64,000 bases of DNA. Origin: Candidatus Woesearchaeota archaeon (GTDB lineage Archaea > Nanobdellota > Nanobdellia > CAZCWL01 > CAZQAZ01). Each line of letters starts with the position of its first letter. Position 1 is the stretch's first letter. The notes beneath the pieces were generated by a model that worked only from the letters and a program-made list of their open reading frames with translations, had not been told where the DNA came from and ran no database searches. Of this stretch, positions 2,426 to 36,226 are shown in pieces. The stretch is taken from NCBI GenBank assembly GCA_964591855.1, contig CAZQAZ010000001.1:7591-71590 (forward strand). The letters are read 5' to 3'. The position numbers were made by a program, and so were the translations under genes.

Positions 2426-2487
2426 GGTTTATATTTGTTGACTCTTTATTTTAATTTAACTTGATAGGGTTGAAATTAAGGAAGGAG

Positions 2488-15558: not shown

Positions 15559-16224
15559 ATGGTTCTTAACTTTCATATGGATGAGCCTCTTAATTTTGAT
15601 GACGTGTACAATGAATGGGTTCAAATAGACAGACAAGTTTCAGACCCTATTGTAATTAACTTTGGAAAGTTTACTTTGATTTTCATTTTGATTAATGTGC
15701 TGGTTTATGTCTTAAGTGCATTTTTTCCTTTAGTTCAGCTATTTGCTATGAATAGAGTTTATATGTTCCAGCTTTGGAGGTGGATCACATCACTTTTCTT
15801 CCACTTTAGCATAACACATCTTCTATTCAATATGATTTCTTTGTTTATATTTGGGAACATAATAGAAAGGAGGTTGGGGTCAAGAAACTTTTTGCTCCTT
15901 TACTTTCTTTCTGGAATATTTGGTAATGTAGGATTTTTATTGTTTTCAGGTCCATACACTTTTGGAGCTGGAGCATCTGGTTCTATATTTGGTTTGATAG
16001 GTGCAGCAACCATCCTTTATCCAAACCTTGTACTTTACATAAACTTCATACCTCTTCCATTGAAGGTTGCAGGACCCCTTATGGCCTTAGGCGAGTTTAT
16101 ACTCCTACTTGGTGCAAGGGATGGGATAGCACATTCCGCACACGTCTTTGGATTTGTTGTTGGGATAGTGCTAGCATTTTACTTAAGGAGGAGAGAGCTT
16201 GGATACAGTAGATCTAGTTCTTAA
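15559..16224 (+). CDS. Rhomboid-family intramembrane serine protease.
   Basis: 221-aa polytopic membrane protein with GASGSIFG (catalytic Ser in GxSG) and downstream AHSAHVFGF (catalytic His). Starts 7 nt after the giant ORF stop. Confidence 0.7.
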   Translation: MVLNFHMDEPLNFDDVYNEWVQIDRQVSDPIVINFGKFTLIFILINVLVYVLSAFFPLVQLFAMNRVYMFQLWRWITSLFFHFSITHLLFNMISLFIFGNIIERRLGSRNFLLLYFLSGIFGNVGFLLFSGPYTFGAGASGSIFGLIGAATILYPNLVLYINFIPLPLKVAGPLMALGEFILLLGARDGIAHSAHVFGFVVGIVLAFYLRRRELGYSRSSS

Positions 16225-16957
16225 TGAGCTGAAGAGATCAAAGAAGTATAAGAGCTTACATGAGGATCTCTTAATCCCAATAATCCTTAAACATTTGCCT
16301 GAGACACAAGATACTAGAACTAAGGAATTCAAGGACAAGATTAAAAGCATTAAGAGAGAGCTTCACAAAGCATATGCAGCTTACATCCAAAACAAGAGAA
16401 GAATAGAGACCTTACTTAAGAAAGGTGCAAGTGAAGAGGAGATAATGGCTCTTCACTCTTCCACTAAGGAAAGACTTCCTTACTACAAGGAATTTTACTC
16501 ATCGATTTTTAAGATCACAGGGAAGCCAAAGAGAGTTGCGGACATAGGGTGTGGCTTAAATCCCCTTTCCTACAAGTATTTTGGATGTAAACCCTTCTAC
16601 TTTGCAATGGATGTAGACCCTTTCGTTATCAATGCGGTTAACACTTACTTCAATATGAAAGGCATAGATGGAAGAGCTGTGCTTGGTTCAGCACTTGAAC
16701 TTAAATACGATTTCAAAGATTATGACGTTGTTCTGATGTTGAAGTTACTCCCATTACTTGAATCCCAAAGGAAAGGAATCACAGAGCAGCTTTTGTCCCA
16801 AATAAAATCAAGGTACATTGTATTCTCCCTCCCAACGAGGTCTCTTTCGTCTAGAAAGCCACTTGACACTTCCTTTTTCAAGGAAAAGATACCTTACAAA
16901 AAGCTTATTAAGTTTCCTAACGAAGAGGTTTTAGTATACGAAAGCCCCGTCGTCTAG
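16199..16957 (+). CDS. Class I SAM-dependent methyltransferase, FmrO/Rmt(ArmA)-like signature.
   Basis: 252-aa ORF with motif I VADIGCGLNPLSY. GCG-x-NPL is the signature I associate with 16S rRNA m7G1405 methyltransferases. Overlaps the rhomboid stop (26 nt) and the tRNA-Gln 5' end (15 nt). Confidence 0.45.
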   Translation: MDTVDLVLNELKRSKKYKSLHEDLLIPIILKHLPETQDTRTKEFKDKIKSIKRELHKAYAAYIQNKRRIETLLKKGASEEEIMALHSSTKERLPYYKEFYSSIFKITGKPKRVADIGCGLNPLSYKYFGCKPFYFAMDVDPFVINAVNTYFNMKGIDGRAVLGSALELKYDFKDYDVVLMLKLLPLLESQRKGITEQLLSQIKSRYIVFSLPTRSLSSRKPLDTSFFKEKIPYKKLIKFPNEEVLVYESPVV

Positions 16958-17015
16958 TGGTCAAGGATGCGAGGTTCTGGCCCTCGTGACCCCGGTTCGA
17001 ATCCGGGCGGGGCTA
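16943..17015 (+). tRNA. tRNA-Gln(CTG).
   Basis: Acceptor stem agccccg/cggggct with A1-U72 (common for archaeal tRNA-Gln). Anticodon stem cgagg/cctcg with loop ttCTGgc. T arm ccggTTCGAATccgg. Discriminator a. Confidence 0.85.
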
Positions 17016-22200: not shown

Positions 22201-25200
22201 GAGAACATCACCGTCACAGACTTAAACTCAACCTACTTTAGGGTAGGAGACACAGTGAAGGTTGAGATTTGGGCGTACTGTTATGGTTCTGGATCAAGTG
22301 ACAACATCAACTTTGTATACGCAAATAACACCTCAGAACCTGTTTGGAAGGTAGTTGATTATGTTGACCCATGTCCTGGCGGTGGCTTCCAGAAAGTGTC
22401 TACTACATTCCAGTTGGAGAACGTAACGGGAAATCATTCTGTTAGGGGTATAATCCAATACTCTGGTGATGTGACAAGTACATGTGGTACAGGTGATTAC
22501 GACGACAACGATGATGTCTCGTTTAAGGTTTATTCTAGTTCTACAGAGAGAATAGTTGTTCCTGACAAAAACTTGTATGTGGATTGTAGAGGTAATGATA
22601 ATATTGAAATACTTGGCTTAAATTGGAATTCGAACATAAATGTCACGTTAAATGTCACATACTTGGAGACAGGAGAAAATGTGTTGTACGAGAATGTGAC
22701 TACCAACTCAAGTGGTGAGTTCTTAAGGGTGCTTCCAATAGCTTGGATTTTAGGTAACGGGAAGTATAAAATATTTGCCTTTGAATGGAACAACACCTCA
22801 CTTAATGCCTCAAGTTCATTTGATGTGGACATCCCAAGGTGTGTAGTGGTAAGGCCTGTTGACAATCAGGAGATATATGAAGGATTTAAGGTGGTGTATT
22901 GGTCGGACTACGATAATGATACATTACATACCTTACGGTTAGATGATGGTTCACCGGAAGGTTATGTGGGGGGATCAACTTCAAACGTTCTTATAAGAGC
23001 TAACGAGTACAACATAAAACATTCTGATTACTGGGATGAGAATGTTACAGTTTGTGGTTACATGGGCTATGAGTACAATGAAAATGGTGATACTAACCCA
23101 CTTGTTAATGTTACAGTTGATACAACAGTTACACCTTATCAAATAGAGCTGACAAATTCTATATCATCCCCTCAATGGCATTGTATTAATGTATCGAAGT
23201 CGTACTTCTCAGATGGCTATCATAAGATAGGATTTAAATGTGAGAACTGTCAAAGTGGTGCGTCTACGAATCAGGAAGTATCTTGGTCCATAATGGCAGA
23301 CTCTAAGCAGAGGGAATCTTACTACTGGAATGGTACAGATTGGATTCATTACAAATATACATATTACATTAGAGTTAACTACACGGAACTTGGAGATGAC
23401 ACCTCAATACAAGCCCACCTTCCAAATGGAACTGTAGATACGATAGATACAATCTTGAAGACGGAGAAGGTAGATCGTGCAGTAACAACGTACAATAACA
23501 CACTTCTTGGGAACTACACATTCTGTGTATACTGGAAAGGTTGTACCTCAAATAGAACGGTAGAATCTGTGGACACTAGCCCTCCAAACATAACAGTGGA
23601 ATCCCCACTTAACCAAACATACTTACAAGATGTTTGGTTTAATGTAACAGCTGTGGACAATTATAAGGTGGGGTCTTGTAAATTCTCATTAGATGGACAA
23701 AGCAATACAACTATGAGCAACGACTCATATACTCACTTCTACTATCATAATAGCAGTATGACTATCGGACAACACAATGTAGTATTCTACTGCAATGACT
23801 CAGAAGGTAACCTTAATCAAACGGATACAATTTATTTCACAGTTGTTGGAAATGCTGCACTTTATGCTGTTAAGTATAATATATCGGACTTTCAGTTTGC
23901 TTCAGACACATACGTTGATAGTGTATTAATTTACTTCAATACATCAGCCTCGAGCACCAACTTTGCACTACTTTCAACGATGAATGTTAGGAAGGTGGAT
24001 GGAACTCTACCCAACGACGTCTACTGTTTAGTTAGAGTTGATGGGAAGAACATAAGAGAGGAGAAAGTGAGAACTGTCAATACGACAGACGATGAAGGAT
24101 CTACAGGGTTAGCACCAGTTAAGTTTTCAGTTGGGCCTGGAGAGCACAACTTAACAGTATCATTCAAGAGAAGTGGAGATGGGACAGTGAATGTGAGCGA
24201 CTTTGATCTTGTTTTACTTAAAGCAAGATCGAACCTTGACAATGAAGTTAGGCTCCAGATTACAAATGAGTCTTACACGCATTCTTCAAGCAGTTTTGAG
24301 CCAGCATTTAACTGGACTGTTGTAAGAGATAATCAAGCAAGCACATATATCTTCCTTAAGCAAACTACAACTTCAACTGCAGCTTCAGATGTAAGCTACT
24401 ACATAGAAAATCTAAACACAAGTTTGAAGTCACCTTACTGGTCTGGTAGGATAGAGTCGGCTTCAGATGTAAGCTCTCTTTTTGGTACACACATAGATTC
24501 AGAGTACGGTAATAGTACTTTCACAATCCAATCAAAGACTCAGACAGGCCAAGCAACAGTAAATGTCTCTATCTTGGATTTGGACCTTAAAGATAGTGGG
24601 GGAAATGTAATAGATCACTTCAACGTGACCAACTCGTCCTCTACGCTCACACAAAACTTGGTTCTATCGCAAGGCTTACATAAGGTAGCAAGTGCTACCA
24701 TAACTCCAAAGAGTGGGGATAGTTATGTAGTATCTGCAGTTTTATCCTTGAACTCAACGAGCTCAGGCACGTACACAGTGATAATTAATTCTACAGACAT
24801 AGGGGAAGATAATTGTAGCTCAAAAAAGGAAATCTATATCCCAGATGGCTCAGCTCGTATGGTTGGTATAGTAACAGAGTGTACAGGTATGAGTATTGGA
24901 AATAGTTATACAATTGACTTATGGGTGAAAGTTCCACAGGGTTCAACATTGAGTGTACTTGACGAGAATCTTGTAGGTCTAGAGGCAAAGGTGTTTGATA
25001 CCCAAACAGGAAATCTTCCTCCAGCACCAAATGATATAACGAATCCAACAGATGGAGCCCTCTTAAAAGGAAGTGTTAACATAACTTGGGACGAGTTCGT
25101 AGACCCAAACGGAGACAGTGTTACTTACAATATCTCCTTATTTAATCCAGATGGAACATTCAACAGCACTATTAATGGCAGTACAACCTTTACTTACCAG

Positions 25201-26352
25201 CTTTGGGACACAACTGGAAGTTACGATGGGAACTACACATTGGTTGTTGAAGCATGTGATCCAAGCAGTGCTTGTTCTAATAGCAGTGTTAACATTAGGG
25301 TGGACAACACTCCACCACAATGGTCAAATGTTGGTGAGAACGCAACCTCAGTAGATCAAGGAGAAAGTGTGAAACTATATGCTTACTGGGCAGACAACAC
25401 CAATTTATCATTTGCTATCCTTTCTACGAATGAGTCGGGAGTTTGGGAGAATAAGACTGAGTACGGTAGTCCACTTGCATTCTCAAGTAAGGAAGGGTGG
25501 TCTAACTTCACATGGTCAAATAACTCTGTGACTGGGACAGTTGCCTGGAAGATATGGGCAAACGACACAGCTGGAAATTGGAACGTTACTGACACACAAT
25601 ACTTCGACATCGTTGCCAATAATCTACCAACTATCTTAAACGTTACAAGTCCTGGCTCTGTTGACCCTGTTGAAGGAGGAGTGAAGTTAGTAGAGATAAG
25701 GTTCAACGCGTATGACTATGATGGGAACTCTGACCTTAACGATACGACTGCTAAAGCAATCATAGATCTACTAGGTACAACCTACCAGAACAATAGTTGT
25801 GTATCCTCAGTTGTCAACGCCACTGTTAAAGAGTACACATGTACTTTCACACTACATTACTACGACAATTATGGAGATTGGTCCATAAATGTCTCAGTAA
25901 GAGACAATTCAAATGCATTAGCCTACAACGACTCAGAGACATTTTACTACTCCAAACTTGCAGCCGCTACTCTTATAAATTCAACGGTAAACTTTGGAAG
26001 CGTCAGTTTAGGTTCTTCGAATGCTACGAACATCAACAACCCTATGATTGTGAATAACACAGGAAATATGGAGTTGAATATAAACATAACAGGAGCAGAC
26101 CTTGTTGGTGTAACAGATCCATCCTATGTGATTGGTGTAGGTAATGTCACTTTCAATGACGATGACAATTCCACAGGGGATGGCTCTGGGAACCCATTAA
26201 AGCATTTATCTACAGATCCCATCAATTATAACCCAAACGCAACACTTTTAAAGAAGAAGAGCTTTATGTATTTATACTGGTGGATAAATATTCCACAAGG
26301 CTTGATGGCCCAAGCATACAATGCAACTTGGACCATACTCGTATACGGGTAG
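19240..26352 (+). CDS. Giant N-terminally anchored, sequon-dense cell-surface protein (2370 aa).
   Basis: Single 7.1-kb ORF. N-terminal TM/signal-anchor ILKAAIYIVLATIFIIVIPVYLI. Three copies of the KCKDWD module are centred at nt about 20140, 20665 and 21925, each followed by a T(L)T(L)..EDPG-like segment. Many NxT/S sequons. FN3/PKD-like segments are present. The C-terminal roughly 270 aa is paralogous to the next gene. Confidence 0.8.
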   Translation: MEILKAAIYIVLATIFIIVIPVYLITGYATWAKDFVSYTEDLNLYFDHNATFEWSPSYIKSDMGLYAIYLSAEVYGDGNATVYLETDGEPKVFEFPKEGSYLTGRSITIQGRSRGTISIEPKKPIVKEPTKASLSKVVLTDECLDTCDLSKYNISYPLKFKVVLNNATVRLTSIKYVWYRKLDKVEFTLPVVGSDGTFYPSEVLIRDPEGNVVFQTENKKTLFGSTPFVVKPGDYNIELAFEGTPLTKLEFKNVSISVASNPKVKFEDYSTSDYVAFAVDPNLDFEDGKVQFVSNGGEIYKCKDWDWSNKTCNSAWVFLLNTTKGEVVTLDINESDPAFVELVNVSGVSTLAGNKGFVPPILIDGKVIARDRSGREIEKYSAIYKSGKLVKYNNETYKKISKGLYNVTLLINKTHVKKVDVENALLDRDTHEIVVDELEPDPNSSYKLVYHINASSLQFKALNVNVVAKGNIVYECKDWDFSGGKCNGDLDPVRVVSPGKAYTLSLNDEEVVLVEKAEPINCVAEDLRQKDEFIDACDSPDGTSLAKDDGVIERHFYGKSTSKKYGGVLINLSSSNLTNCTNIEKVELCYEWWRGPVKPKDCEISVDTGDGNWNKVVTSCPNKAANPGISCVDITNLKSWACSDFTSGKIRIKSQLGGAVGNNGNSYAVWDALYINVSYSTSSTFVKLIDPPNGTEDSNGQVNFVYDLSDYSKFDQCSLILDNKVVATDYGFSRNRNRFHVVDLDEGIHSWKISCLSSNEYYNTTERIIYVTRGGAGGSVEIPIVMKNSREDAIPSKFIFKDSSNGEVELETNYGGLISANLSKGKYDIDIIPKNGRIKKIEIKGAMIDKDTAALMFFEDNITTNGPVNRFAINPLIDFTSANITVTARGTRLLKCKDWNWTSQTCDGRWTFIKDITPGTNYTITLTPEDPGYAESGAIMCYTSPCVAGSDLLMSRDNLDTPEPNFPNTIDTCTDGTSGSYKSDESIENITVTDLNSTYFRVGDTVKVEIWAYCYGSGSSDNINFVYANNTSEPVWKVVDYVDPCPGGGFQKVSTTFQLENVTGNHSVRGIIQYSGDVTSTCGTGDYDDNDDVSFKVYSSSTERIVVPDKNLYVDCRGNDNIEILGLNWNSNINVTLNVTYLETGENVLYENVTTNSSGEFLRVLPIAWILGNGKYKIFAFEWNNTSLNASSSFDVDIPRCVVVRPVDNQEIYEGFKVVYWSDYDNDTLHTLRLDDGSPEGYVGGSTSNVLIRANEYNIKHSDYWDENVTVCGYMGYEYNENGDTNPLVNVTVDTTVTPYQIELTNSISSPQWHCINVSKSYFSDGYHKIGFKCENCQSGASTNQEVSWSIMADSKQRESYYWNGTDWIHYKYTYYIRVNYTELGDDTSIQAHLPNGTVDTIDTILKTEKVDRAVTTYNNTLLGNYTFCVYWKGCTSNRTVESVDTSPPNITVESPLNQTYLQDVWFNVTAVDNYKVGSCKFSLDGQSNTTMSNDSYTHFYYHNSSMTIGQHNVVFYCNDSEGNLNQTDTIYFTVVGNAALYAVKYNISDFQFASDTYVDSVLIYFNTSASSTNFALLSTMNVRKVDGTLPNDVYCLVRVDGKNIREEKVRTVNTTDDEGSTGLAPVKFSVGPGEHNLTVSFKRSGDGTVNVSDFDLVLLKARSNLDNEVRLQITNESYTHSSSSFEPAFNWTVVRDNQASTYIFLKQTTTSTAASDVSYYIENLNTSLKSPYWSGRIESASDVSSLFGTHIDSEYGNSTFTIQSKTQTGQATVNVSILDLDLKDSGGNVIDHFNVTNSSSTLTQNLVLSQGLHKVASATITPKSGDSYVVSAVLSLNSTSSGTYTVIINSTDIGEDNCSSKKEIYIPDGSARMVGIVTECTGMSIGNSYTIDLWVKVPQGSTLSVLDENLVGLEAKVFDTQTGNLPPAPNDITNPTDGALLKGSVNITWDEFVDPNGDSVTYNISLFNPDGTFNSTINGSTTFTYQLWDTTGSYDGNYTLVVEACDPSSACSNSSVNIRVDNTPPQWSNVGENATSVDQGESVKLYAYWADNTNLSFAILSTNESGVWENKTEYGSPLAFSSKEGWSNFTWSNNSVTGTVAWKIWANDTAGNWNVTDTQYFDIVANNLPTILNVTSPGSVDPVEGGVKLVEIRFNAYDYDGNSDLNDTTAKAIIDLLGTTYQNNSCVSSVVNATVKEYTCTFTLHYYDNYGDWSINVSVRDNSNALAYNDSETFYYSKLAAATLINSTVNFGSVSLGSSNATNINNPMIVNNTGNMELNINITGADLVGVTDPSYVIGVGNVTFNDDDNSTGDGSGNPLKHLSTDPINYNPNATLLKKKSFMYLYWWINIPQGLMAQAYNATWTILVYG
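25834..25964 (+). repeat. 131-nt perfect direct repeat (copy 1 of 2; copy 2 at 26694..26824).
   Basis: Read directly. tacacatgtactttcacactacattactacgacaattatggagattggtccataaatgtctcagtaagagacaattcaaatgcattagcctacaacgactcagagacattttactactccaaacttgcagc is identical at both sites. Flanking coding sequence has diverged. Confidence 0.85.
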
Positions 26353-26358
26353 GTAAAG

Positions 26359-27219
26359 ATGGAGTGGACAAAATACTTGTCATTAGTTTTTGTATCGTTG
26401 TTTATAGTAGGGACAGTATTAGCAGCAGATGTCACATCCGAAAGTGAACAAGTAAATGCAACACTTATCCTTACAAACTCTCCACCAACAATAGATTCTG
26501 TTACTCCAGGTTCTACGACATACGATCCTGTAGAGGCAGGTACAACACTAGTAACCATCTACTTTGTTGCTTCGGATTCAAATGGCGTTAGTGACATAGA
26601 TGACTCAACAGCACAAGCAGTCATAACAAATGGAGCTACAACCTATACTAACACATCTTGCGTTGGAACAGACTTAGATGCAGACTCTGTTAACTACACA
26701 TGTACTTTCACACTACATTACTACGACAATTATGGAGATTGGTCCATAAATGTCTCAGTAAGAGACAATTCAAATGCATTAGCCTACAACGACTCAGAGA
26801 CATTTTACTACTCCAAACTTGCAGCTCTTGAGTTAATAAACACACCAATAGACTTTGGTAGCTTAACTTTAGGAACCAACGATAATCCAAACCAGAATAA
26901 CCCATTAAAGATTAACAACACAGGTAACCTTGCACTTAACATAAACATAACAGGAGCAGACCTTGTTGGTGTAACAAACCCAGCATACAAGATAGGTGTG
27001 GGTAATGTAACAGTAGATGACGATGCAACATTAAATGAGGGAACAGAAACGGGTAACAACGAATTAACTTTAAGCACATCTGCACAGACCTACAATCCAA
27101 ATGGATCACCTGTAGCTAAACAAAGTACAGCAGACTTGTACTTCTGGATAGACTTACCATCAGTAGGATTGATAGCACAACAGTACAATGCAACTTGGAC
27201 CATAACAGGATTCGAGTGA
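26359..27219 (+). CDS. Secreted protein, stand-alone paralog of the C-terminal domain of the preceding giant protein.
   Basis: 286 aa with signal peptide MEWTKYLSLVFVSLFIVGTVLAA. Aligns along its length to the last roughly 270 aa of ORF 19240..26352, including an identical CTFTLHYYDNYGDWSINVSVRDNSNALAYNDSETFYYSKLAA segment. Starts 7 nt after the giant ORF stop. Confidence 0.7.
   Translation: MEWTKYLSLVFVSLFIVGTVLAADVTSESEQVNATLILTNSPPTIDSVTPGSTTYDPVEAGTTLVTIYFVASDSNGVSDIDDSTAQAVITNGATTYTNTSCVGTDLDADSVNYTCTFTLHYYDNYGDWSINVSVRDNSNALAYNDSETFYYSKLAALELINTPIDFGSLTLGTNDNPNQNNPLKINNTGNLALNINITGADLVGVTNPAYKIGVGNVTVDDDATLNEGTETGNNELTLSTSAQTYNPNGSPVAKQSTADLYFWIDLPSVGLIAQQYNATWTITGFE
26694..26824 (+). 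repeat. 131-nt perfect direct repeat (copy 2; copy 1 at 25834..25964). A second identical 36-nt block lies at 26080..26115 = 26941..26976.
   Basis: Same string as copy 1. The second block is ataaacataacaggagcagaccttgttggtgtaaca. Confidence 0.85.
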
Positions 27220-27226
27220 GTAGCTT

Positions 27227-28816
27227 ATGAGACTTAAATCCTTACTTTTACTTTACTTAGTTTTATCTTTAGCTGTAAGTTTTAGTTTCGCATGGGGTAT
27301 AACTTCTGATAAGCCTTACATTACTATGAATCCTGGGGAGACTAGAGAGTTTAGCATAAGGCTTCAAAATGCTGGGAATGAGGATAAGTATATAACCTAT
27401 ACTGTACTTGATGAGTATGGTGTTGTCAAGGGAGCTGATGTGAAACCTCCAATATTTCTCCCAGCTAACACAACCACACACCCCATAGAGATAAAATTTA
27501 CTCTCCACTTACCAAGGAATGCTAGTCTTCCTTACTACAATGTCACTTTCTTATTTTCGGAGAAGGCACAAAATGGACAGGGGGTAAGTCTTGGGATACA
27601 ACTTACAAGGAAGGTAGTTATAAGAAATTCATTCGTTGAAGAGCCTATCATCAAAGATTACTCTAAGCTAATCTTTGCTGGAGAGTTAGTCTTGTTAAGT
27701 GTTGTGATAGTGTGTGTAGGGATTTATGTTAGGAAGATCGTCGAAAGGAAGACAGAGGAGGCTAAGAAAAGAAAAAAGAAGCTTGAACACCTAAAGAAAA
27801 GTGTAGTTAAGCTTGTGTTTCTTATGCTTTTGTTATCCTTCGCAGCAAGCCTTACACTTGCAGACGAGACAGAAGCTACACTTAACCTAACAGAGAACAA
27901 CGCCACTCTTACCATAAATTCCCCTATAGAAATTAATGTTCAAGAGGACGCTGATTTCATAGCCAAGTACTATGTTGGAAACATGTCAATTCCTGATGCA
28001 ACGTGCACTCTTAGAATTGGAAACGACGTTTACTCTATGGATTATGTTTCTTCAAGGCAGCACTACGAGAGAATGGTTAGGTTTTATGTTCCAGGAGAGT
28101 ACACTTTTAATGTCTCATGCAAGGCGCCAGGTTATGAATATAAGTCAGAGCTTGGAACTGTTTATGTAAGAGCAGCGTCTAAGTCCACCAGCAAGGGCTT
28201 TTTATTCCAGAGAGAAAACTTACCAAACTTTGTGAAGGGAAACTTCTCAGATGTGCAAGTTTTCATTTACTTGAAGAAAGGTGTCAGCAATCCCAATATA
28301 ACTTTTGAGAGGTGTGAGAATCAAACTTTAGAAGGTTACTTACTTTATACTTGCTTTTACATTGATGTGAACTTCGACAAAGAGCTCATAAACAAAACAG
28401 TAATTATGTTCAACATCTCACATAGGTGGATACAAGACAATGATATTAATGTCTCAACAATAACTTTCATTAAAGATGGTGAGAGGATTGATGTTGAGCT
28501 AGTGGAGGAAAATGGATTTGGTTTAGTTTACAAGTATGAATCTGACTCACTTTCTTTGTTTTCCGTATTCGCTAAGAAAAATATTTATCCGACTATAGAT
28601 TACTGGACCATGCTAAAGATTGTTATGGACTACTACGATGGGAAAGTTCCATTCTCGAAAGTTGAGGACGCATTGAAAACTTACTATGGTAACTTCAGTG
28701 GTAAAGGTGTGGCATCAACGTATCCATTTAAGGAACCTTTGAATCAAGACATAGCTATACTGCTCTTAGTATTTATACTGTTCACTTTATTGAGCTTTAG
28801 GGGTGTGAAGAGATGA
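27227..28816 (+). CDS. Membrane protein with CARDB-like N-terminal domain; possibly two fused type-I membrane modules.
   Basis: 529 aa. Signal peptide, then a CARDB-like segment (ITMNPGETREFSIRLQNAGNEDKYITYTV), TM, basic stretch KKRKKK, a second signal-like hydrophobic segment (FLMLLLSFAASLTLA), a second ectodomain, and a C-terminal TM. Confidence 0.5.
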   Translation: MRLKSLLLLYLVLSLAVSFSFAWGITSDKPYITMNPGETREFSIRLQNAGNEDKYITYTVLDEYGVVKGADVKPPIFLPANTTTHPIEIKFTLHLPRNASLPYYNVTFLFSEKAQNGQGVSLGIQLTRKVVIRNSFVEEPIIKDYSKLIFAGELVLLSVVIVCVGIYVRKIVERKTEEAKKRKKKLEHLKKSVVKLVFLMLLLSFAASLTLADETEATLNLTENNATLTINSPIEINVQEDADFIAKYYVGNMSIPDATCTLRIGNDVYSMDYVSSRQHYERMVRFYVPGEYTFNVSCKAPGYEYKSELGTVYVRAASKSTSKGFLFQRENLPNFVKGNFSDVQVFIYLKKGVSNPNITFERCENQTLEGYLLYTCFYIDVNFDKELINKTVIMFNISHRWIQDNDINVSTITFIKDGERIDVELVEENGFGLVYKYESDSLSLFSVFAKKNIYPTIDYWTMLKIVMDYYDGKVPFSKVEDALKTYYGNFSGKGVASTYPFKEPLNQDIAILLLVFILFTLLSFRGVKR

Positions 28817-29277
28817 GAAGAACATTGTTGATCCTAGTTTTAACATTGATTTTGCCTACAGTCATTGCTGGCAATGTCTCTTTAGAGAGGGATTATAATA
28901 GTCAAATAACCACATCTAACACTTTAGTAATCAAGCTCAACATCAGCACAACGTCTCAAGCAGATGTTGCTGAGTTTATACCATTACAGTTTAAGTTACT
29001 CAACTGGACAGCAAGCTGCCCTGTGCAGTTCGATAAAAAGATGGTGGGTGATAGACTAGTTTTGCATTTCAAGACGAATTCAAGTTGCACAATAAGCTAC
29101 ACTCTTCTCCCAACCTCTAGTGGAGAATATGAATTCACCTCCATATTAACTTCTTTGGACAGCGTTAAAAAGGAAACATTTCCTGTTAAGGTTCTTCAAA
29201 CCTACAACTTTGACTTTGTGTACATACTTGTATTCTTGCTTCTATTGGGATTACTAATTAAGGTGACGTCCAAATGA
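28813..29277 (+). CDS. Small type-I membrane-anchored extracellular protein (hypothetical).
   Basis: 154 aa. N-terminal signal peptide, C-terminal TM (FVYILVFLLLLGLLI), sequons. Start overlaps the previous stop (ATGA). Confidence 0.5.
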   Translation: MRRTLLILVLTLILPTVIAGNVSLERDYNSQITTSNTLVIKLNISTTSQADVAEFIPLQFKLLNWTASCPVQFDKKMVGDRLVLHFKTNSSCTISYTLLPTSSGEYEFTSILTSLDSVKKETFPVKVLQTYNFDFVYILVFLLLLGLLIKVTSK

Positions 29278-29831
29278 AAAAGATGATTCCATTGCTTGCA
29301 GTTCTCATCCTCTCCACAAGTTTAGTTTATGGTATAAACATTAAAAGTGAGAGCGCTTCTTTCTTAGGTCAGGCTATAGACTTCTCCATAGAAGCCAAAC
29401 CAAGCGAATTAAACACATTTGTTTTAGTTCTTCCAGATGATGCGAATCTTGTAGATTGGAACTTCAACAAAGTAAAGTATGATTACTCATACGAAGCTAG
29501 AGGAGGGCAGATTATTCATACGTGGGATAATCTGTCTTATAGCAAATACTTAAGCTTCAACGCAAAGATCTCTTTTAATAAACCTGGTGAAAGGGAGTTT
29601 TTAATCTTCTATAAAGGTGCAAATGAGAGCATGGTAAGAAAAAAAGTCTATGTCTCAGATAAAAGTCTTTGTGGTAATGGACTTTGTGACAAGAATGAGG
29701 AATACACCTGTCCACAAGATTGCAAGAAGTTCGAGTTGCCAACCATTCCGAAGTGGGTATGGATTGTTCTCATAGTTGTTTTGATCTTAGTCTTGGTCTT
29801 AGCATATGTGAAGCTAAGATTTTGGTACTAA
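29274..29831 (+). CDS. Small type-I membrane-anchored extracellular protein (hypothetical).
   Basis: 185 aa. Signal peptide, a Cys-rich CGNGLCDKNEEYTCPQDC segment, C-terminal TM (WVWIVLIVVLILVLVLAYV). Start overlaps the previous stop. Confidence 0.5.
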   Translation: MKKMIPLLAVLILSTSLVYGINIKSESASFLGQAIDFSIEAKPSELNTFVLVLPDDANLVDWNFNKVKYDYSYEARGGQIIHTWDNLSYSKYLSFNAKISFNKPGEREFLIFYKGANESMVRKKVYVSDKSLCGNGLCDKNEEYTCPQDCKKFELPTIPKWVWIVLIVVLILVLVLAYVKLRFWY

Positions 29832-30404
29832 ACTAACAATATCCACTCTCCCCTCTTCATATAATAACATCTTGTCTTCAAATGCAGGTTTCCCTTTCAA
29901 AGTTAAAATTACTTCATTAGCACATAAGGCTCCAATTATACCACAGACAGAAGGTTCAACATGTCTGTGGCATTCCACGAACACATCTTTGTTCTTGATT
30001 ACAGAATAAAAGTCTGACTTGTACACGTGTGCAAATCTTCCTTGGTTTCTTATAGCTGCTGTATGAAATAGCCTCTTTCCCTTTAAGTGACATAACCTAG
30101 CCAAGAGCTTTCGAGTTTCCATATTATCTGAACAATCTATAATTATATCTTCCTCATCAATATAAGACTCAAATCCAACATCAAACCTTTCCTTTACGCC
30201 TTTAAACTTGCAAAAGCTTGAGAGTTTCTCTTCAGCAACTTCAACCTTATACTTACCCACATCTTTCGGCCCATAGAGTATTTGTCTATTAAGATCGCTT
30301 TCATTAACCTCATCGAAGTCAAAGGCTGTGATGTTAACCCCTCTTCTGGCTAGAAACATAGCCACAGAACTTCCAGTCCCGCCAAGTCCTATTATGAGCA
30401 CCAT
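29814..30404 (-). CDS. ThiF/MoeB/HesA-family E1-like adenylyltransferase (minimal form).
   Basis: 196 aa. N-terminal dinucleotide-binding motif LIIGLGGTGSSVAMFLARRGV and a DxxDNxxxR-like DCSDNMETR, typical of ThiF/MoeB. Lacks the long Cys-rich C-terminal extension. Confidence 0.6.
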   Translation of the reverse strand: MVLIIGLGGTGSSVAMFLARRGVNITAFDFDEVNESDLNRQILYGPKDVGKYKVEVAEEKLSSFCKFKGVKERFDVGFESYIDEEDIIIDCSDNMETRKLLARLCHLKGKRLFHTAAIRNQGRFAHVYKSDFYSVIKNKDVFVECHRHVEPSVCGIIGALCANEVILTLKGKPAFEDKMLLYEEGRVDIVSLVPKS

Positions 30405-30483
30405 ACTTAATTACTACCATCCACACATTAAATACTTTAATAACCTTTTTAAACGAAGAGATTTTTGTTATAGTGGTGAGAAC

Positions 30484-30906
30484 ATGGTAAATGTAGTTGG
30501 AAATCAGATAACAAAGTTAGAAGCTTCTAAGAAGGAAGTTAAAGAGAGAGTAACGGAACTTAACTTCAACATCAAAACCAAAGTGGATAAAGTAGAAGTT
30601 AAGAGAAAGCTCGAGAACGACGTTAGCTTAGTCTCAGCAAAATATAGCTTAGTTATAGATTACGTATTTAAAAAGAAAAGCATAGCAAACATAACCTTCG
30701 AAGGCGAGATGCTTTTTGCCTACTCTCAAGATGCTGCTGAGAAATTAGTTAAAGAGTGGAAGAAGTCAAAGAAGCTTGAGAGGGGAATGGCAGCAGCTGT
30801 AAATAAAATTGGATTTGAGCAGTGTTTAGTTGAGGCCATAAACGTTGCTAGAATGTTAAAGTTGCCAAATCCTATACCCATTGGTAATCTTTTTAGGAAA
30901 CAATAA
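30484..30906 (+). CDS. Hypothetical cytosolic protein, coiled-coil-like.
   Basis: 140 aa from ATG 30484 (MVNVVGNQ...). The track ORF begins at 30328 but that part overlaps thiF on the opposite strand. No recognisable motifs. Confidence 0.35.
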   Translation: MVNVVGNQITKLEASKKEVKERVTELNFNIKTKVDKVEVKRKLENDVSLVSAKYSLVIDYVFKKKSIANITFEGEMLFAYSQDAAEKLVKEWKKSKKLERGMAAAVNKIGFEQCLVEAINVARMLKLPNPIPIGNLFRKQ

Positions 30907-30938
30907 TCTTAATAAATAGTTATTCCCTTATTTTTCTT

Positions 30939-31643
30939 ATGTACAGAAAAACAAAGAAATTAGTCCTTAGTGCTGTTTTGTTACTTTTACTTGCAGCCGT
31001 TGCTTATAATTCCTTACATCTTACAGGTTTATTCTTAGCTACAAGTGATTGGCAAAAGTATTGGGAGAACAGAGAGGTTCTTGAGATAGATAACTCTAAG
31101 GAGTACATCACACACTTTATCAAGTTTGGGATGTACAAGCCGAAGGTGTGTAGTGAGGGGATATGGGTAACGGATGGTTTCAATGACATAGACTTCCAAA
31201 CCTTCAATGAAACTTACTCCAATGGGTACTGTGTAAGTACGAATATAAAGTTTAGGAATCCGATTTACACCGAAAGGAAGATAAGCATAAGGCCTGTAAC
31301 AGCGCCTGAAAGACCTTCAAGAAGGGTTCTAATAACAGCCAAGGCTATTATGAACTCTATGAAAGTTTACGTTTACTATGGACGTAAGCCAGTCATTCCA
31401 GAGTATAACAAACTGCAAGATGATCCTAACTTTGACGTTGTGATTCAAAATGAAACCTTGGTAAATGGAACCCTTATTGTTACATTCTATCATACATCCG
31501 AAACACCGAGAAACATATCCATCCTTGGAAATGTTAACTACACACTCTCCGAGAACGTATCAAATGGTTATGAAGTTGTAGAGCTTAAGATATATGGGTG
31601 GAATGAGTACGGGCAGAACTACTTCCAGCTTGTTGTGGAATAA
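30939..31643 (+). CDS. Secreted/N-terminally anchored hypothetical protein.
   Basis: 234 aa, N-terminal hydrophobic segment LVLSAVLLLLLAAVAY, sequons. Confidence 0.45.
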   Translation: MYRKTKKLVLSAVLLLLLAAVAYNSLHLTGLFLATSDWQKYWENREVLEIDNSKEYITHFIKFGMYKPKVCSEGIWVTDGFNDIDFQTFNETYSNGYCVSTNIKFRNPIYTERKISIRPVTAPERPSRRVLITAKAIMNSMKVYVYYGRKPVIPEYNKLQDDPNFDVVIQNETLVNGTLIVTFYHTSETPRNISILGNVNYTLSENVSNGYEVVELKIYGWNEYGQNYFQLVVE

Positions 31644-31677
31644 AAAGGATTATATTTGTTAGAGGTTTAATTATTGT

Positions 31678-32541
31678 ATGAAAGTGGAGCTTCTTGCCTT
31701 TGATTCAATGGGAGTTAGATCCATGGCAACCTTCATTAAGACAAAAGACGTGGCCATAACAATAGACCCAGGTGTTTCTCTTGGCCCTTTAAGATACGGA
31801 TTAGAGCCGCACCCTCTTGAGTATAAGGAAGAGATCAAGAGATGGAACCTCATTGAAAAGAAAGCAAGGGACTCTGACATACTTATTATATCTCATTATC
31901 ATTACGATCATTATAACCCAGATAAGCCTGACTTATACTCAAATAAGATTGTTTTCATAAAAGATCCTAAGAACAAGATAAATCAAAGTCAAAAGAGGAG
32001 AGCAAGTTCTTTCATACCGCAAATAGAGCCTCTTGTGAAATCTTTGGACATAGCGGATGGGAGAGATTTTAAATTTGGAAGTACAAAGATATCTTTCTCT
32101 CCACCAGTCTTCCATGGAAAGAATGCAAGACTTGGGTACGTGGTACAAACGTTAATTGACGATGGAAAGAAGAGAATAATCCATACTTCGGACATAGAGG
32201 GGCCATGTAATGAGATTCAAATAGATTTCATACTTAGGAACAAGCCAAATATTGTCATAATGGATGGGCCCCTTACTTATATGTTAGGATATAGAATGTC
32301 TTATGATGACTTAAACAAGGCAAAGAACTTGCTTAAGAAAGTCTTGGCTATGAAATCCTTAGAGGTTTTGGTATACGACCATCACTTCATGAGAGACCTT
32401 AAGTGGGAAGAAAGAATAGCTGACCTGTTCAAGTATGCTAAGGAACACAACTCTAAGATCATGCCTGCATCAAGGTTCATGGGCGAAAAGCTAAACATTC
32501 TTGAAGCAAGAAGAAAAGAACTTTGGGAGCAAGAGATCTAA
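31678..32541 (+). CDS. Metallo-beta-lactamase-fold hydrolase (UPF0282-like).
   Basis: 287 aa. The ISHYHYDHY motif (HxHxDH) and downstream His/Asp residues fit MBL-fold proteins of the archaeal UPF0282 type. Confidence 0.5.
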   Translation: MKVELLAFDSMGVRSMATFIKTKDVAITIDPGVSLGPLRYGLEPHPLEYKEEIKRWNLIEKKARDSDILIISHYHYDHYNPDKPDLYSNKIVFIKDPKNKINQSQKRRASSFIPQIEPLVKSLDIADGRDFKFGSTKISFSPPVFHGKNARLGYVVQTLIDDGKKRIIHTSDIEGPCNEIQIDFILRNKPNIVIMDGPLTYMLGYRMSYDDLNKAKNLLKKVLAMKSLEVLVYDHHFMRDLKWEERIADLFKYAKEHNSKIMPASRFMGEKLNILEARRKELWEQEI

Positions 32542-32555
32542 CCTCCAATTTTTGT

Positions 32556-33899
32556 CTACTTTCTCTTTGATTTGTAAAGCTCATACAAAGTTAGGATAAG
32601 GAGTGCAATTACAAGTAAGAGTACAAGCCAATCAAATGGCTTGTTTGGGGGGTACACGAACACAGTTCGGTTTACGTAAACTGTTTCTCTCTCTGGGAGG
32701 ACAGTTATGTTCAGCTCCTTAAAGTAAAGTGTAGAGTCTTTTTGTTTAACGATTAGACTTATCTTCTGAAGCCCAGTTTCATTGGCTTGGAAAGTTATTG
32801 TTTTAGTAGCCTTGTATTCACTCTCATTACTGTACTCTCCTAAGAGAATCAATCCACTTGAGTAATCCAACACATAACTTAGGTTAAGTTCTACATTGGA
32901 ACTTGTAGTCACTGAGACATTGAATACATCCCCCAATAATGCAAGATTTGGATATTCTAAGAATATATTGTAGCTAGGCTCTGATATGTACACAACACCT
33001 GTTGGACACGTTCCTCCAGATCCTCCACCTCCAGATGGACAGTAATATGTGATAAAGGTATCTTCTACCCAAGAAGAACAAGCCCCATACTTATCACATG
33101 TCCTTACCCTCCACGAATATTTCTCAAAATAAGATAAGTTTGACTCATACTGCGGAGAGATGGCAGGACTTATTACATTCCCGCCGTTGAACTGGTACTC
33201 ATCATAAACATCGTCTCCATCTGGATCCACACCTGATTCCCAAGACAAAGCTACACTTAGTTGTTGAGTATTGTCTTGGTCTGTGAGTGTTGGAGGTGAA
33301 GGAGGATGATTAATAACTGTGAAGGTGTCATAAACCCAATCTGAACATGAATAATCATTACATGTTCTTACTCCCCATTTATATGTTCCAGGGGGAAGGG
33401 AAACCCTATAGCTATTCCCAGTTGGGTAATACACAGTTCCATCAATAATAAGCTGGTCAGAGGTGTTTAGCCCATTTGGATCTGAACCAGAAGTCCAGTT
33501 TAAGATTACATCTCCAGTATGTGTATCGTTTACATCTTCTAATGTTGGATTTGTAGGTGGCGTGGACAAAGTTAAGTTTAAGTATCCAGCTTGGTATTGA
33601 TCTGCTTGTGTTTCACCTGAACCTTCGAGATCGTTGAAGCTTGCTTGAACTCTTATCGTCCCACCAGGCTCAACATTAAGATTAGCGATTACATAATAAC
33701 CATTAGAATCTGATAAGGTCTGTCCGGAGCATCCACTTCCACTACACCCAACAACTGTTGCATTGACGGTTGCTCCTTGAATCAGATTCCCGTTGAAATC
33801 TTTAATATAGCCCTCAACAGTCCCCAAGTATATCTGAGCATAACTTGCTCCAATTACAAAAAACGCAAGCATAAAGACAGCAAACTTCAGTCTGGTCAT
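32556..33899 (-). CDS. Type-I membrane-anchored surface protein with CarbopepD-like and two FN3-like domains.
   Basis: 447 aa. Signal peptide. Two FN3-like repeats of the form TNPTLEDVNDTHTGDVILNWTSG...YKWGVRTCNDYSCSDW and LTDQDNTQQLSVALSWESG...YSWRVRTCDKYGACSSW. A Gly-rich CPSGGGGSGGTCP segment. C-terminal TM plus KSKRK tail. Confidence 0.6.
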   Translation of the reverse strand: MTRLKFAVFMLAFFVIGASYAQIYLGTVEGYIKDFNGNLIQGATVNATVVGCSGSGCSGQTLSDSNGYYVIANLNVEPGGTIRVQASFNDLEGSGETQADQYQAGYLNLTLSTPPTNPTLEDVNDTHTGDVILNWTSGSDPNGLNTSDQLIIDGTVYYPTGNSYRVSLPPGTYKWGVRTCNDYSCSDWVYDTFTVINHPPSPPTLTDQDNTQQLSVALSWESGVDPDGDDVYDEYQFNGGNVISPAISPQYESNLSYFEKYSWRVRTCDKYGACSSWVEDTFITYYCPSGGGGSGGTCPTGVVYISEPSYNIFLEYPNLALLGDVFNVSVTTSSNVELNLSYVLDYSSGLILLGEYSNESEYKATKTITFQANETGLQKISLIVKQKDSTLYFKELNITVLPERETVYVNRTVFVYPPNKPFDWLVLLLVIALLILTLYELYKSKRK

Positions 33900-33926
33900 T
33901 GATTTAATTAAACGTTCTCAGTTTAT

Positions 33927-34577
33927 TTAGCTTTCTAAGTAAGATACATTATAATAAACAAAGCTCTTATCATAAGTTAAAAGGAAGAACCCTTCACCCA
34001 TCCTAATAACAGTAAACTCAGGAACAGCAGACCTTGGAGAATAAATCAAAAACCTTTGAGTTACATTGTCCCATTTAAGTGCATATCTATAGCTTGGCGT
34101 GTAACTCAATACTTTTTGTATGGTTGAGTTGAATTGATACGGGAATGGAAGTGCATTCCACCCCTTTGTTGTACTTATGTTCAAATCCCCAAATTCCACA
34201 TCTGATCCTAAGTACTCTTTCTCACTTCCAGTAAAGAGTATGAAGAAACTCTCATTGTAATCTAAGTACTCGAACTCAGGATTAGCAGCTCTTGGCGAGT
34301 AAACTAAGAACTTCTGTGATGGTTCATCCCATTTCAAAACATACCTATACTCACCTTCTATTTGTTTCATCAGCTCTTTAACGCTGTAGTTTGTTTCATT
34401 CCCACACAAAGAGACTTGATTCCATCCCGGCCTTAAGGTAAAATAACAATCCCCCAAAACAACAACCCTAGAGCTTACTAAAACGTTTCCAGTTATGCTT
34501 GTGTTTAAGTGTAGTAAGAAGATGTTAGCAAGTGATAAAACAATAGCAAGCATAAACAAGATGTGCTCTTTGTTCAT
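33927..34577 (-). CDS. Secreted protein with two tandem roughly 90-aa repeats (hypothetical).
   Basis: 216 aa, N-terminal signal/anchor. Repeat 1 is RYVLKWDEPSQKFLVYSPRAANPEF...FFILFTGSEKEY. Repeat 2 is RYALKWDNVTQRFLIYSPRSAVPEF...FFLLTYDKSF. Confidence 0.5.
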   Translation of the reverse strand: MNKEHILFMLAIVLSLANIFLLHLNTSITGNVLVSSRVVVLGDCYFTLRPGWNQVSLCGNETNYSVKELMKQIEGEYRYVLKWDEPSQKFLVYSPRAANPEFEYLDYNESFFILFTGSEKEYLGSDVEFGDLNISTTKGWNALPFPYQFNSTIQKVLSYTPSYRYALKWDNVTQRFLIYSPRSAVPEFTVIRMGEGFFLLTYDKSFVYYNVSYLES

Positions 34578-34677
34578 ACAAACTTAAAGACTTTTTAGTT
34601 TAAATTCTTTCACAACCTTTATAAATAGAGGAATAGATTCATAAAGAAGGGATGATGGATAGGCCTGAGCCTAAGGA

Positions 34678-35208
34678 GTGATGAGTATGGGTTTGTACAA
34701 ATACCTTACTAAGCTTTGGAGAAAGCCAACAGACGAAATAAAAGACGTAAGAAAGAAAAGATTAATTGAATGGAGAAAGCAGCCTTCTATAGTTAGAGTA
34801 GATAAACCAACAAGAATAGATAAGGCCAGGAGACTAGGATACAAAGCAAAGCAGGGATTTGTGATAGTAAGAGTTAAGGTTAAAAAGGGAGGAAGAGAAA
34901 AGCCAAGGCCAAGGAAAGGAAGAAGGCCAAAGAGAATGGGGGTTAAGAAATACACACCTGCTAAATCACATCAAAGAATAGCAGAGGAAAGAGCAGCAAG
35001 GAAGTACAGGAACTTAGAAGTCCTTAACTCATACTATGTTGGGGACGATTCGGTACATGAGTGGTATGAGGTAATTATGGTGGATCCATACCACCCAGCC
35101 ATAAGGAAAGATAAGGACATAAAGTGGATTGCAGAGAAGCAGCACAGAGGAAGAGCATTTAGAGGCTTAACTTCTGCAGGTAAGAAAGGAAGGGGATTAA
35201 GAGCATGA
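34678..35208 (+). CDS. rpl15e: 50S ribosomal protein L15e.
   Basis: 176 aa, strongly similar to archaeal L15e ([57 protein letters not shown]). Confidence 0.9.
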
Positions 35209-35534
35209 TACCTGGAATGAACCCAAATCAGCTTAAGAAAATAATGAAGATGTTAAATGCTAAAGAGCTAGACGTGTCTGAGGTAATCTTCCATATGAGC
35301 GATGGCAGCAAAAAGAAAGTAGAAAGTCCTGAAGTTACAGTAATGAATCTTATGGGAGAGAAGATTATACAAGTTAAAGGAGAATTGCAGGATGTGGAGG
35401 AAAAACCAAAAATAACAGACGATGACATTAAGTTAGTAGCAGAGAAAGCTCAAGTTTCTGAGGAGGAAGCAAGAAGAGCGTTAGAAGAGACGAATGGAGA
35501 CATAGCAGAAGCAATACTTAAGCTTACTTCTTGA
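35205..35534 (+). CDS. nac: Nascent polypeptide-associated complex protein (NAC alpha homolog).
   Basis: 109 aa with N-terminal [13 protein letters not shown] (NAC domain) and C-terminal UBA-like [23 protein letters not shown]. Start ATG overlaps the L15e stop (ATGA). Confidence 0.8.
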
Positions 35535-35850
35535 GCTCTTTAGACTTTTTTGGACTTATAGGTATTCTTTTCTTTTTGCCACATTCTTTGCATGTATATT
35601 CTATAACTTTCTTCTTAATCCTTTTCACAACATTATCCCCCACAACCCAAAAAGCTCCACAGTTTTTACAAAACTGTCTTTTATACTCAAGAGGCATTCT
35701 TAAATTAACTTTCATTGCTATTTTCCTTGCGATGTAAACGTATCTGTTAGCAAGATCTTTTCTACCCCTTTTATACTCTTCCTTTGCAAGTTTGAAAAGT
35801 ATCTTAATCCTTTCCAGCGCAAGCTTTTCTAGATCTCTTTGCTTTCGCAT
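35524..35850 (-). CDS. rnp4: RNase P protein component 4 (Rpp21/Rpr2).
   Basis: 108 aa. YVYIARKIAMKVNLRMP and CKNCG...CKECG zinc ribbon, typical of archaeal Rpp21. Convergent with NAC; the 3' ends overlap by 11 nt. Confidence 0.75.
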   Translation of the reverse strand: MRKQRDLEKLALERIKILFKLAKEEYKRGRKDLANRYVYIARKIAMKVNLRMPLEYKRQFCKNCGAFWVVGDNVVKRIKKKVIEYTCKECGKKKRIPISPKKSKELKK

Positions 35851-35874
35851 ACAAAAATTAGAAAGAGTATACTC

Positions 35875-36018
35875 TTAAATCTTGTTGTTGCATTCTTCAC
35901 ATACGTATACTTCCTTACCTTCTGTTTTAATTACATACTTTGCTTCATTCTTACAGTAATGACATTTTCTCCCCTTTTCTTTTAATTCTTCTCTGACTAA
36001 ACCTCCATTTATTTGCAT
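35875..36018 (-). CDS. Small zinc-ribbon protein (47 aa), not in the ORF track.
   Basis: Translated by hand as MQINGGLVREELKEKGRKCHYCKNEAKYVIKTEGKEVYVCEECNNKI. CxxC-x17-CxxC pattern. Lies immediately upstream of rnp4 on the same strand. Too short to identify (RpoP-like and other Zn ribbons are possible). Confidence 0.3.
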   Translation of the reverse strand: MQINGGLVREELKEKGRKCHYCKNEAKYVIKTEGKEVYVCEECNNKI

Positions 36019-36097
36019 GAGTTCTTCACCTCAAAACCAAATCAAATTTGAAGAAAGTGTTAGAGCATTGCCCTTTCCCTCGCTATGGGAAGTACTC

Positions 36098-36175
36098 GGG
36101 CAATCGTCTTGCGGCTTAACTTCCGTGGTCGAGACGAGAACGGGTGTTTCCCGCAAGACTATGGCCCTAACATTT
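36098..36175 (+). ncRNA. Candidate structured small RNA (hairpin followed by an ACA trinucleotide) in a roughly 200-nt gene-free gap.
   Basis: gggc(aatcg)tcttgcgg-[35 nt with internal ccgt/acgg pairing]-ccgcaaga(ctat)ggccc, then ta-ACA. This gives a 4-bp lower stem, a small internal loop, an 8-bp upper stem, and ACA 2 nt after the helix. It loosely resembles an H/ACA guide architecture. No C/D boxes and no SRP RNA motifs. Strand is uncertain. Confidence 0.15.
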
Positions 36176-36226
36176 CCTTTTACTCTAAAATCTTTTATAA
36201 AGATTTCTATCAATGCTTTATCTATG

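Follow-up and report, generated by a model that had tools for sequence, protein, structure and literature searches.

How can two neighbouring genes be identical, letter for letter, over 131 nucleotides (nt) when the sequence on either side of that tract has drifted far apart? The question is raised by a stretch of 64,000 nt from contig CAZQAZ010000001.1, deposited under the name Candidatus Woesearchaeota archaeon and hereafter called the window. Here a giant open reading frame (ORF), ORF2, encodes a surface protein whose C-terminal module is found again as a separate gene directly behind it; we call this second copy the free gene and its product the free protein. Two blocks of perfect nucleotide identity, termed block 1 and block 2, are embedded in the otherwise diverged alignment of the two copies. 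The best explanation, and in our judgement a likely one, is that the copies are old tandem paralogs in which short patches have recurrently undergone interlocus gene conversion.

Gene conversion itself is textbook matter, and the value of the case is descriptive rather than conceptual. It would show interlocus gene conversion at the resolution of strains, and in an uncultured member of the DPANN archaea, among which to our knowledge recombination has hardly been examined. It also brings to light an unannotated two-domain surface module that forms either a free protein or the end of a giant one and belongs to a conserved cassette of three genes. Contact with the host is believed to run through the surface proteins in DPANN archaea, and the division of the present proteins into identical and diverging parts offers candidate interaction surfaces that can be tested.

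Identity blocks in two diverged copies of one module

The positions of all features are collected in Table 1. ORF2 carries 97 N-X-S/T sequons and a single hydrophobic segment, at its N-terminus, and has no C-terminal anchor; its only Pfam-A match is a sub-threshold one to Big_9 (19.2 bits vs a cut-off of 23.6 bits). The free gene starts 6 nt past the ORF2 stop codon and shares its frame. Read-through of the ORF2 stop codon into the free gene was considered for this shared frame and short spacer, and was set aside because the corresponding pair on another contig (L002, see below) is out of frame and because a fused product would carry a signal peptide in mid-sequence.

BLASTP aligns residues 37-282 of the free protein with residues 2124-2366 of ORF2 at 61% identity (247 amino acids, E = 4e-87), and the module has no third copy in the 64-kb window. 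A preliminary description of the locus, made from the letters of the sequence, had put the identity at about 45-50% overall. That range suits the alignment outside the identity blocks, where 50% of the amino acids agree, and is too low for the whole; homology at the protein level thus extends well beyond the blocks. The same description had given the free protein a signal peptide of its own, and this stands as a prediction: a hydrophobic segment at the N-terminus is followed by VLA/AD, membrane segments are absent elsewhere in the protein, and the whole fits a cleavable signal peptide with a predicted cleavage site. Free-standing members of the family in other genomes also keep a hydrophobic N-terminal region.

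A repeat finder reports a direct repeat of 300 nt at an offset of 861 nt, and the block coordinates were set by direct string comparison of the window letters. The 131-nt identity noticed earlier is exact, although its second interval had been placed one position too low (26694-26824 instead of 26695-26825), and the 36-nt identity between 26080-26115 and 26941-26976 was found just as described. There is also a third exact run, of 21 nt, between 26317-26337 and 27184-27204. In a codon alignment of everything outside both blocks, identity falls to 50% for amino acids, 55% for nucleotides and 40% for third codon positions, against 100% of third positions inside the blocks. Shuffling the codon columns (n = 20000) produced exact runs of 48 nt at the most, compared with the 131 nt observed. 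Where both copies encode the same residue in the flanks, they use the same codon 44% of the time; measured against this rate, the agreement of 42 out of 42 degenerate same-residue codons in block 1 has p ~7e-16, and that of 12 out of 12 same-residue codons in block 2 has p ~5e-5. Neither block has a third copy in the 64-kb window, and an exact 23-nt piece of block 1 had no match in JGI metagenome contigs.

Related strains and an outgroup

A close relative of the locus is carried by contig JBMYBQ010000022.1 (L001, 11.3 kb) of assembly GCA_053993735.1, which encodes the free protein and is referred to here as strain S. It is 97.7% identical to window positions 24873-36211, that is, 2.3% diverged over the 11.3-kb match, and is therefore a different strain that was assembled independently. 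Strain S shows the mosaic of the window, block boundaries included, and the shift of tract boundaries among strains that the preliminary description had envisaged is not seen in it. Its own two copies of block 1 agree at 128 of 131 positions, the three differences being C/T, G/A and C/T. The paralogs thus differ at 0/131 sites of block 1 in the window and at 3/131 in S, compared with 39-51% in the flanks.

These data bear directly on the concern that the identity was made by the assembler, through repeat collapse, bubble popping or a chimeric join of copies that truly differ. The source is evidently a metagenome-assembled genome, and in two sister strains the MEGAHIT contigs break at or in block 2, L034 starting at 26080, the first base of the block, and L033 at 26095, so the region is hard to assemble. 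However, an independent 97.7% strain would have had to arrive at the same two blocks with the same boundaries, and S was not collapsed, since it retains three copy-specific differences. The free-gene block is alike in three further assemblies, and both ORFs are intact and in frame. An assembly artefact, a possibility already raised in the preliminary description, is accordingly very unlikely. As for the contig starts, a 36-nt repeat is expected not to break an assembly graph at k=141, and a possible cause is heterogeneity among strains in the part of ORF2 directly upstream.

We compared site patterns among four sequences (ORF2 and free gene, each from the window and from S), setting three diverged regions against block 1. 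The diverged regions hold 238 orthology-type sites, at which a sequence agrees with its ortholog but not with its paralog, and a single concerted site. In block 1 the counts are 0 orthology-type and 2 concerted sites. At one adjacent dinucleotide both window copies read AC and both S copies read TT, a concerted pattern from which at least one homogenising event after the strain split follows. The free copy is likewise TT in the short contigs L033, L034 and L035 (~98.2-98.4% identity). Besides GCA_053993735.1, the samples related to the source are ERZ27248101, ERZ27248308 and JGI 3300021513. When the seven sequenced copies of the five assemblies are compared, block 1 varies at 0-4 of its 131 sites, and block 2 is invariant across all copies seen.

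A more distant relative (L039) supplied P0002, an ortholog of the free protein. Outside the block, the free copy shares 59% of its amino acids with P0002 and ORF2 47%; because the free copy is the nearer of the two, the duplication must predate the species split from the P0002 lineage, and the identity of the block must be younger. Block 1 is 69% identical to P0002 at the nucleotide level and the rest of the gene 62%, and same-residue codons agree at 0.57 in the block and 0.51 elsewhere, so that by these measures block 1 evolves much like the remainder of the gene. Between the window and S, block 1 has diverged by 3.1% in ORF2 and by 2.3% in the free gene, close to the 2.3% of the 11.3-kb match as a whole, and it is therefore under no unusual nucleotide constraint. 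Two further searches yielded no additional relatives: scanning the genome-contig collection with the free protein found none, so that the species is not represented there, and when the C-terminus of ORF2 served as query, the only close ortholog bearing a module was ORF2's own cluster.

Could the pair have reached its present state without any conversion, as a recent duplicate whose flanks ran ahead under positive selection while purifying selection or codon bias held the blocks? Column conservation across the family is slightly higher in the blocks (0.48 and 0.54) than in the rest of the module (0.44), which lends this idea some support. Against it stand the third positions, 40% identical in the flanks and 100% in the blocks, and the motif NNTGN, the most conserved of the family, which lies outside the blocks and lacks identity between the copies at the nucleotide level. 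Moreover, the flanks differ by just 2-4% between strains, so the divergence of the paralogs there is ancient, with silent sites saturated, and in these same flanks the free copy is orthologous to P0002. We regard a history without conversion as extremely improbable. Of the two causes suggested in the preliminary description, gene conversion is thus supported by the synonymous identity and the AC/TT site, whereas recent duplication is contradicted by the third positions of the flanks and the orthology to P0002.

Block 1 might also owe its identity to a role as nucleic acid, for instance as template or variable repeat of a diversity-generating retroelement, as a structured RNA or as a site of programmed rearrangement. 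DPANN archaea are known as hosts of diversity-generating retroelements, and block 1 contains an imperfect 44-nt palindrome (25857-25900), which the predicted fold shows as a hairpin; folding of the antisense strand gives z = -2.6, and the in-frame offset of 861 nt means that recombination would yield an in-frame chimera. Yet the 27 window ORFs scanned against Pfam, some short ORFs being left out, gave no match to a reverse transcriptase (RVT), and the mismatches are none in the window and, in S, not adenine-specific. The sense strand folds with z = -0.95 only, Rfam has no family matching at block 1, and a nucleic-acid element sits poorly with the lack of a third copy and of any extra conservation of the block between strains or species. 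This explanation, too, has very little probability in our estimate.

Selection on the two genes can be read from the comparison with S. In the free gene 15 codon changes are synonymous and 1 is non-synonymous (2.0% nt), and the last 493 codons of ORF2 show 44 synonymous and 13 non-synonymous changes (4.1% nt), a pattern that indicates purifying selection on both between strains.

Under recurrent conversion, non-reciprocal homologous recombination of the RadA type between direct repeats 861 bp apart would copy short patches from one gene to the other, and a patch would persist since identity favours further exchange. The flanks, diverged by ~45%, may block the extension of the heteroduplex, or selection may keep them distinct; tract boundaries that are the same in the window and S are compatible with either cause. 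As 861 nt equals 287 codons, a crossover within a block would join ORF2 and the free gene into an in-frame chimera and delete the free gene.

The module and its cassette in other genomes

The free protein has no match in Pfam-A or NCBIfam, nor does a sequence search of the PDB return one. AlphaFold2, supplied with 24 family sequences, models it with a pLDDT of 90 and a pTM of 0.75 as two predicted beta-sandwich domains, at about residues 41-152 and 156-286. The C-terminus of ORF2 is modelled with the same strand order (pLDDT 92-98 over the module). In these models block 1 would make up the last three strands of domain 1 together with the interdomain linker, and block 2 two strands of domain 2. 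Foldseek returns generic tandem Ig/FnIII proteins alone (RbmA, integrin legs, adhesin stalks), with TM-scores of 0.2-0.35. Vibrio cholerae RbmA (Foldseek PDB E = 2e-6) is likewise secreted and built of two tandem beta-sandwich domains; because its TM-score is 0.27-0.34 and its identity 10%, we take this as a generic resemblance of fold and not as membership of a family. Similarity to pilins or thread subunits was found neither by PDB sequence search nor among the top Foldseek matches, which were RbmA, integrins and adhesin Ig domains.

Straight after the signal peptide, residues 33-40 of the free protein (26455-26478) form an alternating hydrophobic strand, V-x-L-x-I-x-N-x-x-P, which is kept in the free-standing family members (n = 124). 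It is unpaired and of low pLDDT in the monomer model. In the model of ORF2 the homologous segment (~residues 2114-2125) closes the preceding domain as its final strand. Donor-strand-complemented fibres, such as chaperone-usher pili and archaeal threads, rely on an N-terminal extension strand that completes a neighbour's fold; the strand of the free protein is a candidate for pairing in trans.

With the fold at hand, we can weigh a proposal of the preliminary description, that surface epitopes are exchanged between the two proteins, the free gene serving as a donor cassette for an exposed tip of ORF2 or the reverse. Both are predicted glycosylated surface proteins, and between strains ORF2 changes faster than the free gene, in nucleotides as in non-synonymous codons (13 vs 1). 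But each copy has a single possible donor, both are under purifying selection, and the tract is nearly invariant and would cover core beta strands of the modelled fold, not a variable region. Its effect is to make two proteins alike and not to create variants. Diversifying exchange of epitopes is therefore not supported here and is quite unlikely.

Known cases of conversion among surface proteins differ from the present one. In the cassette-based antigenic variation of Neisseria pilE/pilS and Borrelia vlsE, gene conversion likewise acts on a surface-protein gene, but many silent, promoterless donors diversify variable regions in one direction; here there are two complete ORFs, one tract and no diversity. 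Silent donor cassettes of this type are absent from the window, and the converted segment is not hypervariable. The adhesin paralogs babA/babB and sabA/sabB of the bacterium Helicobacter pylori, which undergo gene conversion, are similar in that full-length surface paralogs on one chromosome swap internal segments by RecA-family recombination and so acquire mosaic identity. The H. pylori loci, however, are distant from each other, and their conversion changes which target is bound or whether the gene is expressed, whereas the window copies are adjacent (861 bp offset), one of them is a domain within 2370 aa, the short tract acts to homogenise, and the host is probably a DPANN archaeon.

A profile search brought up 3251 cluster representatives of the module family, 870 of them with E below 1e-30. 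Architectures were counted among 172 retrieved family sequences: 123 matches are free-standing proteins of at most 360 amino acids, 13 form the very C-terminal end of large proteins, which is also the case in ORF2, and in 37 a further C-terminal extension follows the module. In nearly all of these 37 the extension consists of a short hydrophobic segment, a lysine/arginine-rich run and 1-4 helix-turn-helix (HTH) repeats resembling Sigma70_r4_2 (Pfam E = 3e-15; examples are P0061, P0078, P0099 and P0119). Such members would be giant ectodomains tethered to a putative cytoplasmic DNA-binding tail. In L031 the HTH part occurs as separate small genes that flank the giant gene (L031:3487-4014 and L031:11325-11831). 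ORF2 and the free protein are without the HTH extension. We found no published description of the HTH-extended architecture, and literature searches for the module family and related assemblies likewise returned none.

In four other lineages (L002, L031, L032 and L037), which are distant genomes, the same order of genes recurs: a giant protein ending in the module, a free module, and a small anchored protein in which a signal peptide and a beta-sandwich precede a C-terminal transmembrane helix. L006 has the free module and the small anchored protein without a giant protein. The two modules of a pair are 60% identical in the lineage of the window, 64% in L031, 45% in L032 and 71% in L037, compared with 30-40% between genomes, and in a neighbour-joining tree the giant and free modules of these four pair by genome. 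In the L037 pair, ~330 nt at the 3' end are ~90% identical against 50-70% upstream (permutation p = 0.009), which on the alignment is a tract independent of that in the window, older and differently positioned. Repeated conversion of an ancestral pair would be the simpler reading of the pairing by genome, because the three-gene order is shared. Together, the recurrent cassette and the grouping by genome point to long-term concerted evolution.

A comparable history has reportedly been described for archaeal chaperonin (thermosome) subunit paralogs, among which recurrent gene conversion is said to have been found by Archibald and Roger (2002, J Mol Biol). There, too, archaeal paralogs group by lineage through repeated conversion. 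The proteins are unrelated to ours, and co-assembly of the subunits is proven in that case, whereas here it would have to be deduced from gene order.

Several observations weigh against recurrent conversion as the whole explanation. The event after the strain split is supported by one adjacent dinucleotide only, which is modest, and the chance of a parallel change there is ~0.03 by our estimate if it arose by one mutation. The exact 131/131 of the window is perhaps slightly inflated by the assembler. Among the other genomes, the L031 and L032 pairs have no significant tract, the L002 modules are only 23-28% identical, and L038 has a module-bearing giant with no adjacent free copy. Pairing by genome could also have come about through independent duplications in each lineage.

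What might the exchange mean for the proteins? The preliminary description had thought of the free copy as a possible cap or partner subunit that would assemble with the C-terminal domain of ORF2. The conserved gene order and the pairing by genome fit a functional coupling of the two modules, with no implication that they co-assemble. Both unanchored modules might act on the cell surface, a point we hold with low certainty, and they would probably bind to one another or to a shared partner, which might be found among the downstream gene products with C-terminal anchors. Shared contacts of this kind would make homogenised core strands tolerated or even favoured. A bolder version, which we put forward as a doubtful but not negligible idea, is that giant and free module form a split surface device widespread in DPANN archaea, with interacting surfaces matched by conversion. 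The free module would dock on the C-terminal module of the giant or on the shared small anchor, possibly by way of the conserved orphan beta strand at its N-terminus. If true, such co-evolution by conversion would explain the pairing by genome in four independent lineages.

On L002 (JGI 3300021468, Ga0190360_1000088; 1-20885) the cassette stands amid small ORFs and Cas4-like, DUF5131 and HTH_7 genes. These surroundings look like a virus or an integrated element, and for this reason the cassette may travel on mobile elements.

Downstream genes and the rest of the window

ORF2 and the free gene open a tightly packed run of five genes, followed by genes for proteins of 529, 154 and 185 amino acids, with gaps of 6-7 nt or overlaps of 4 nt between them. 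Each of the last three products ends in a transmembrane helix, while ORF2 and the free protein do not. The 529-aa protein has four hydrophobic segments that make up two units of signal peptide, ectodomain and transmembrane helix, with a lysine/arginine-rich loop between them. Its N-terminal unit is a homolog of the small anchored protein found behind the free module elsewhere, and its layout points to a fusion that joined two anchored surface proteins, each with a gene of its own in other genomes. When the downstream window proteins were compared by BLAST with the C-terminal extensions of the fused family members, nothing matched.

A division of labour between unanchored and anchored surface-layer proteins has been described for Sulfolobales and proposed for DPANN archaea, which have N-glycosylated Ig-like surface proteins (bioRxiv 10.1101/2023.10.27.564410). 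The window resembles the SlaA/SlaB pair and these Ig-like proteins in placing a large, unanchored, sequon-rich beta-sandwich protein beside smaller proteins with C-terminal transmembrane helices, and as in the SlaA/SlaB type the unanchored large protein and its anchored neighbours share one operon, the genes being 7 nt apart or overlapping by 4 nt. Sequence similarity to SlaA, SlaB or an annotated S-layer family was not found in Pfam, NCBIfam or the PDB. The comparison does not imply that the window proteins form a lattice.

Table 1. Positions of the features discussed in the text, in window coordinates
Feature	Position	Strand	Basis or remark
ORF2, giant surface protein, 2370 aa	19240..26352	+	ORF list, hydrophobicity scan
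ORF2 C-terminal module, aa 2124-2370	25609..26349	+	BLASTP, family hidden Markov model (E 3e-82), AlphaFold2
Free-standing module gene, 286 aa	26359..27219	+	ORF list, AlphaFold2
Predicted signal peptide of free protein, aa 1-22, MEWTKYLSLVFVSLFIVGTVLA, then AD	26359..26424	+	Hydrophobicity scan
Block 1 (putative conversion tract), ORF2 copy, 131 nt, encodes YTCTFTLHYYDNYGDWSINVSVRDNSNALAYNDSETFYYSKLAA	25834..25964	+	String comparison
Block 1 (putative conversion tract), free-gene copy, 131 nt, residues 113-156	26695..26825	+	100% identical to ORF2 copy
Block 2, ORF2 copy, 36 nt, encodes NINITGADLVGV	26080..26115	+	String comparison
Block 2, free-gene copy, 36 nt, residues 195-206	26941..26976	+	In domain 2
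Concerted dinucleotide	25851..25852 (and 26712-26713)	+	AC in both window copies, TT in both S copies
529-aa membrane protein	27227..28816	+	Weak choice-of-anchor T and PGF-pre-PGF matches
154-aa protein, signal peptide, ectodomain and C-terminal transmembrane anchor	28813..29277	+	4-nt overlap with 529-aa gene
185-aa protein, signal peptide, ectodomain and C-terminal transmembrane anchor	29274..29831	+	Last of packed run
Second giant ORF, 4363 aa, TTG start as listed	2461-15552		164 N-X-S/T sequons, no module
Rhomboid intramembrane protease gene	15559-16224		Directly after the 4363-aa ORF
FmrO/Rmt-type 16S rRNA (G1405) N7-methyltransferase homolog	16199-16957		Pfam E = 1e-30
tRNA-Gln(CTG)	16943-17015		Overlaps 3' end of ORF 16199-16957 and listed MgtE ATG (16967)
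5S rRNA gene	36057-36172	-	Alone among protein-coding genes

Elsewhere in the window, the FmrO/Rmt homolog belongs to a family known from aminoglycoside resistance, and its match to the NCBIfam Rmt model (E = 1e-48) stays under the curated cut-off. Near the tRNA gene, the true start of mgtE probably lies further downstream than the listed ATG. A listed ORF at 36017-36427 is probably spurious because the 5S rRNA gene lies inside it. The housekeeping genes of the window are archaeal (L15e, NAC, Rpr2, a family B DNA polymerase domain and the 5S rRNA), although scanning with L15e gave no more than 50-68% matches, spread across many archaeal phyla. One member of the 90% cluster of ORF2 is named 'Candidatus Aenigmarchaeota archaeon' in GenBank; judged from these genes and this name, the host is probably a DPANN archaeon of the Aenigmarchaeota.

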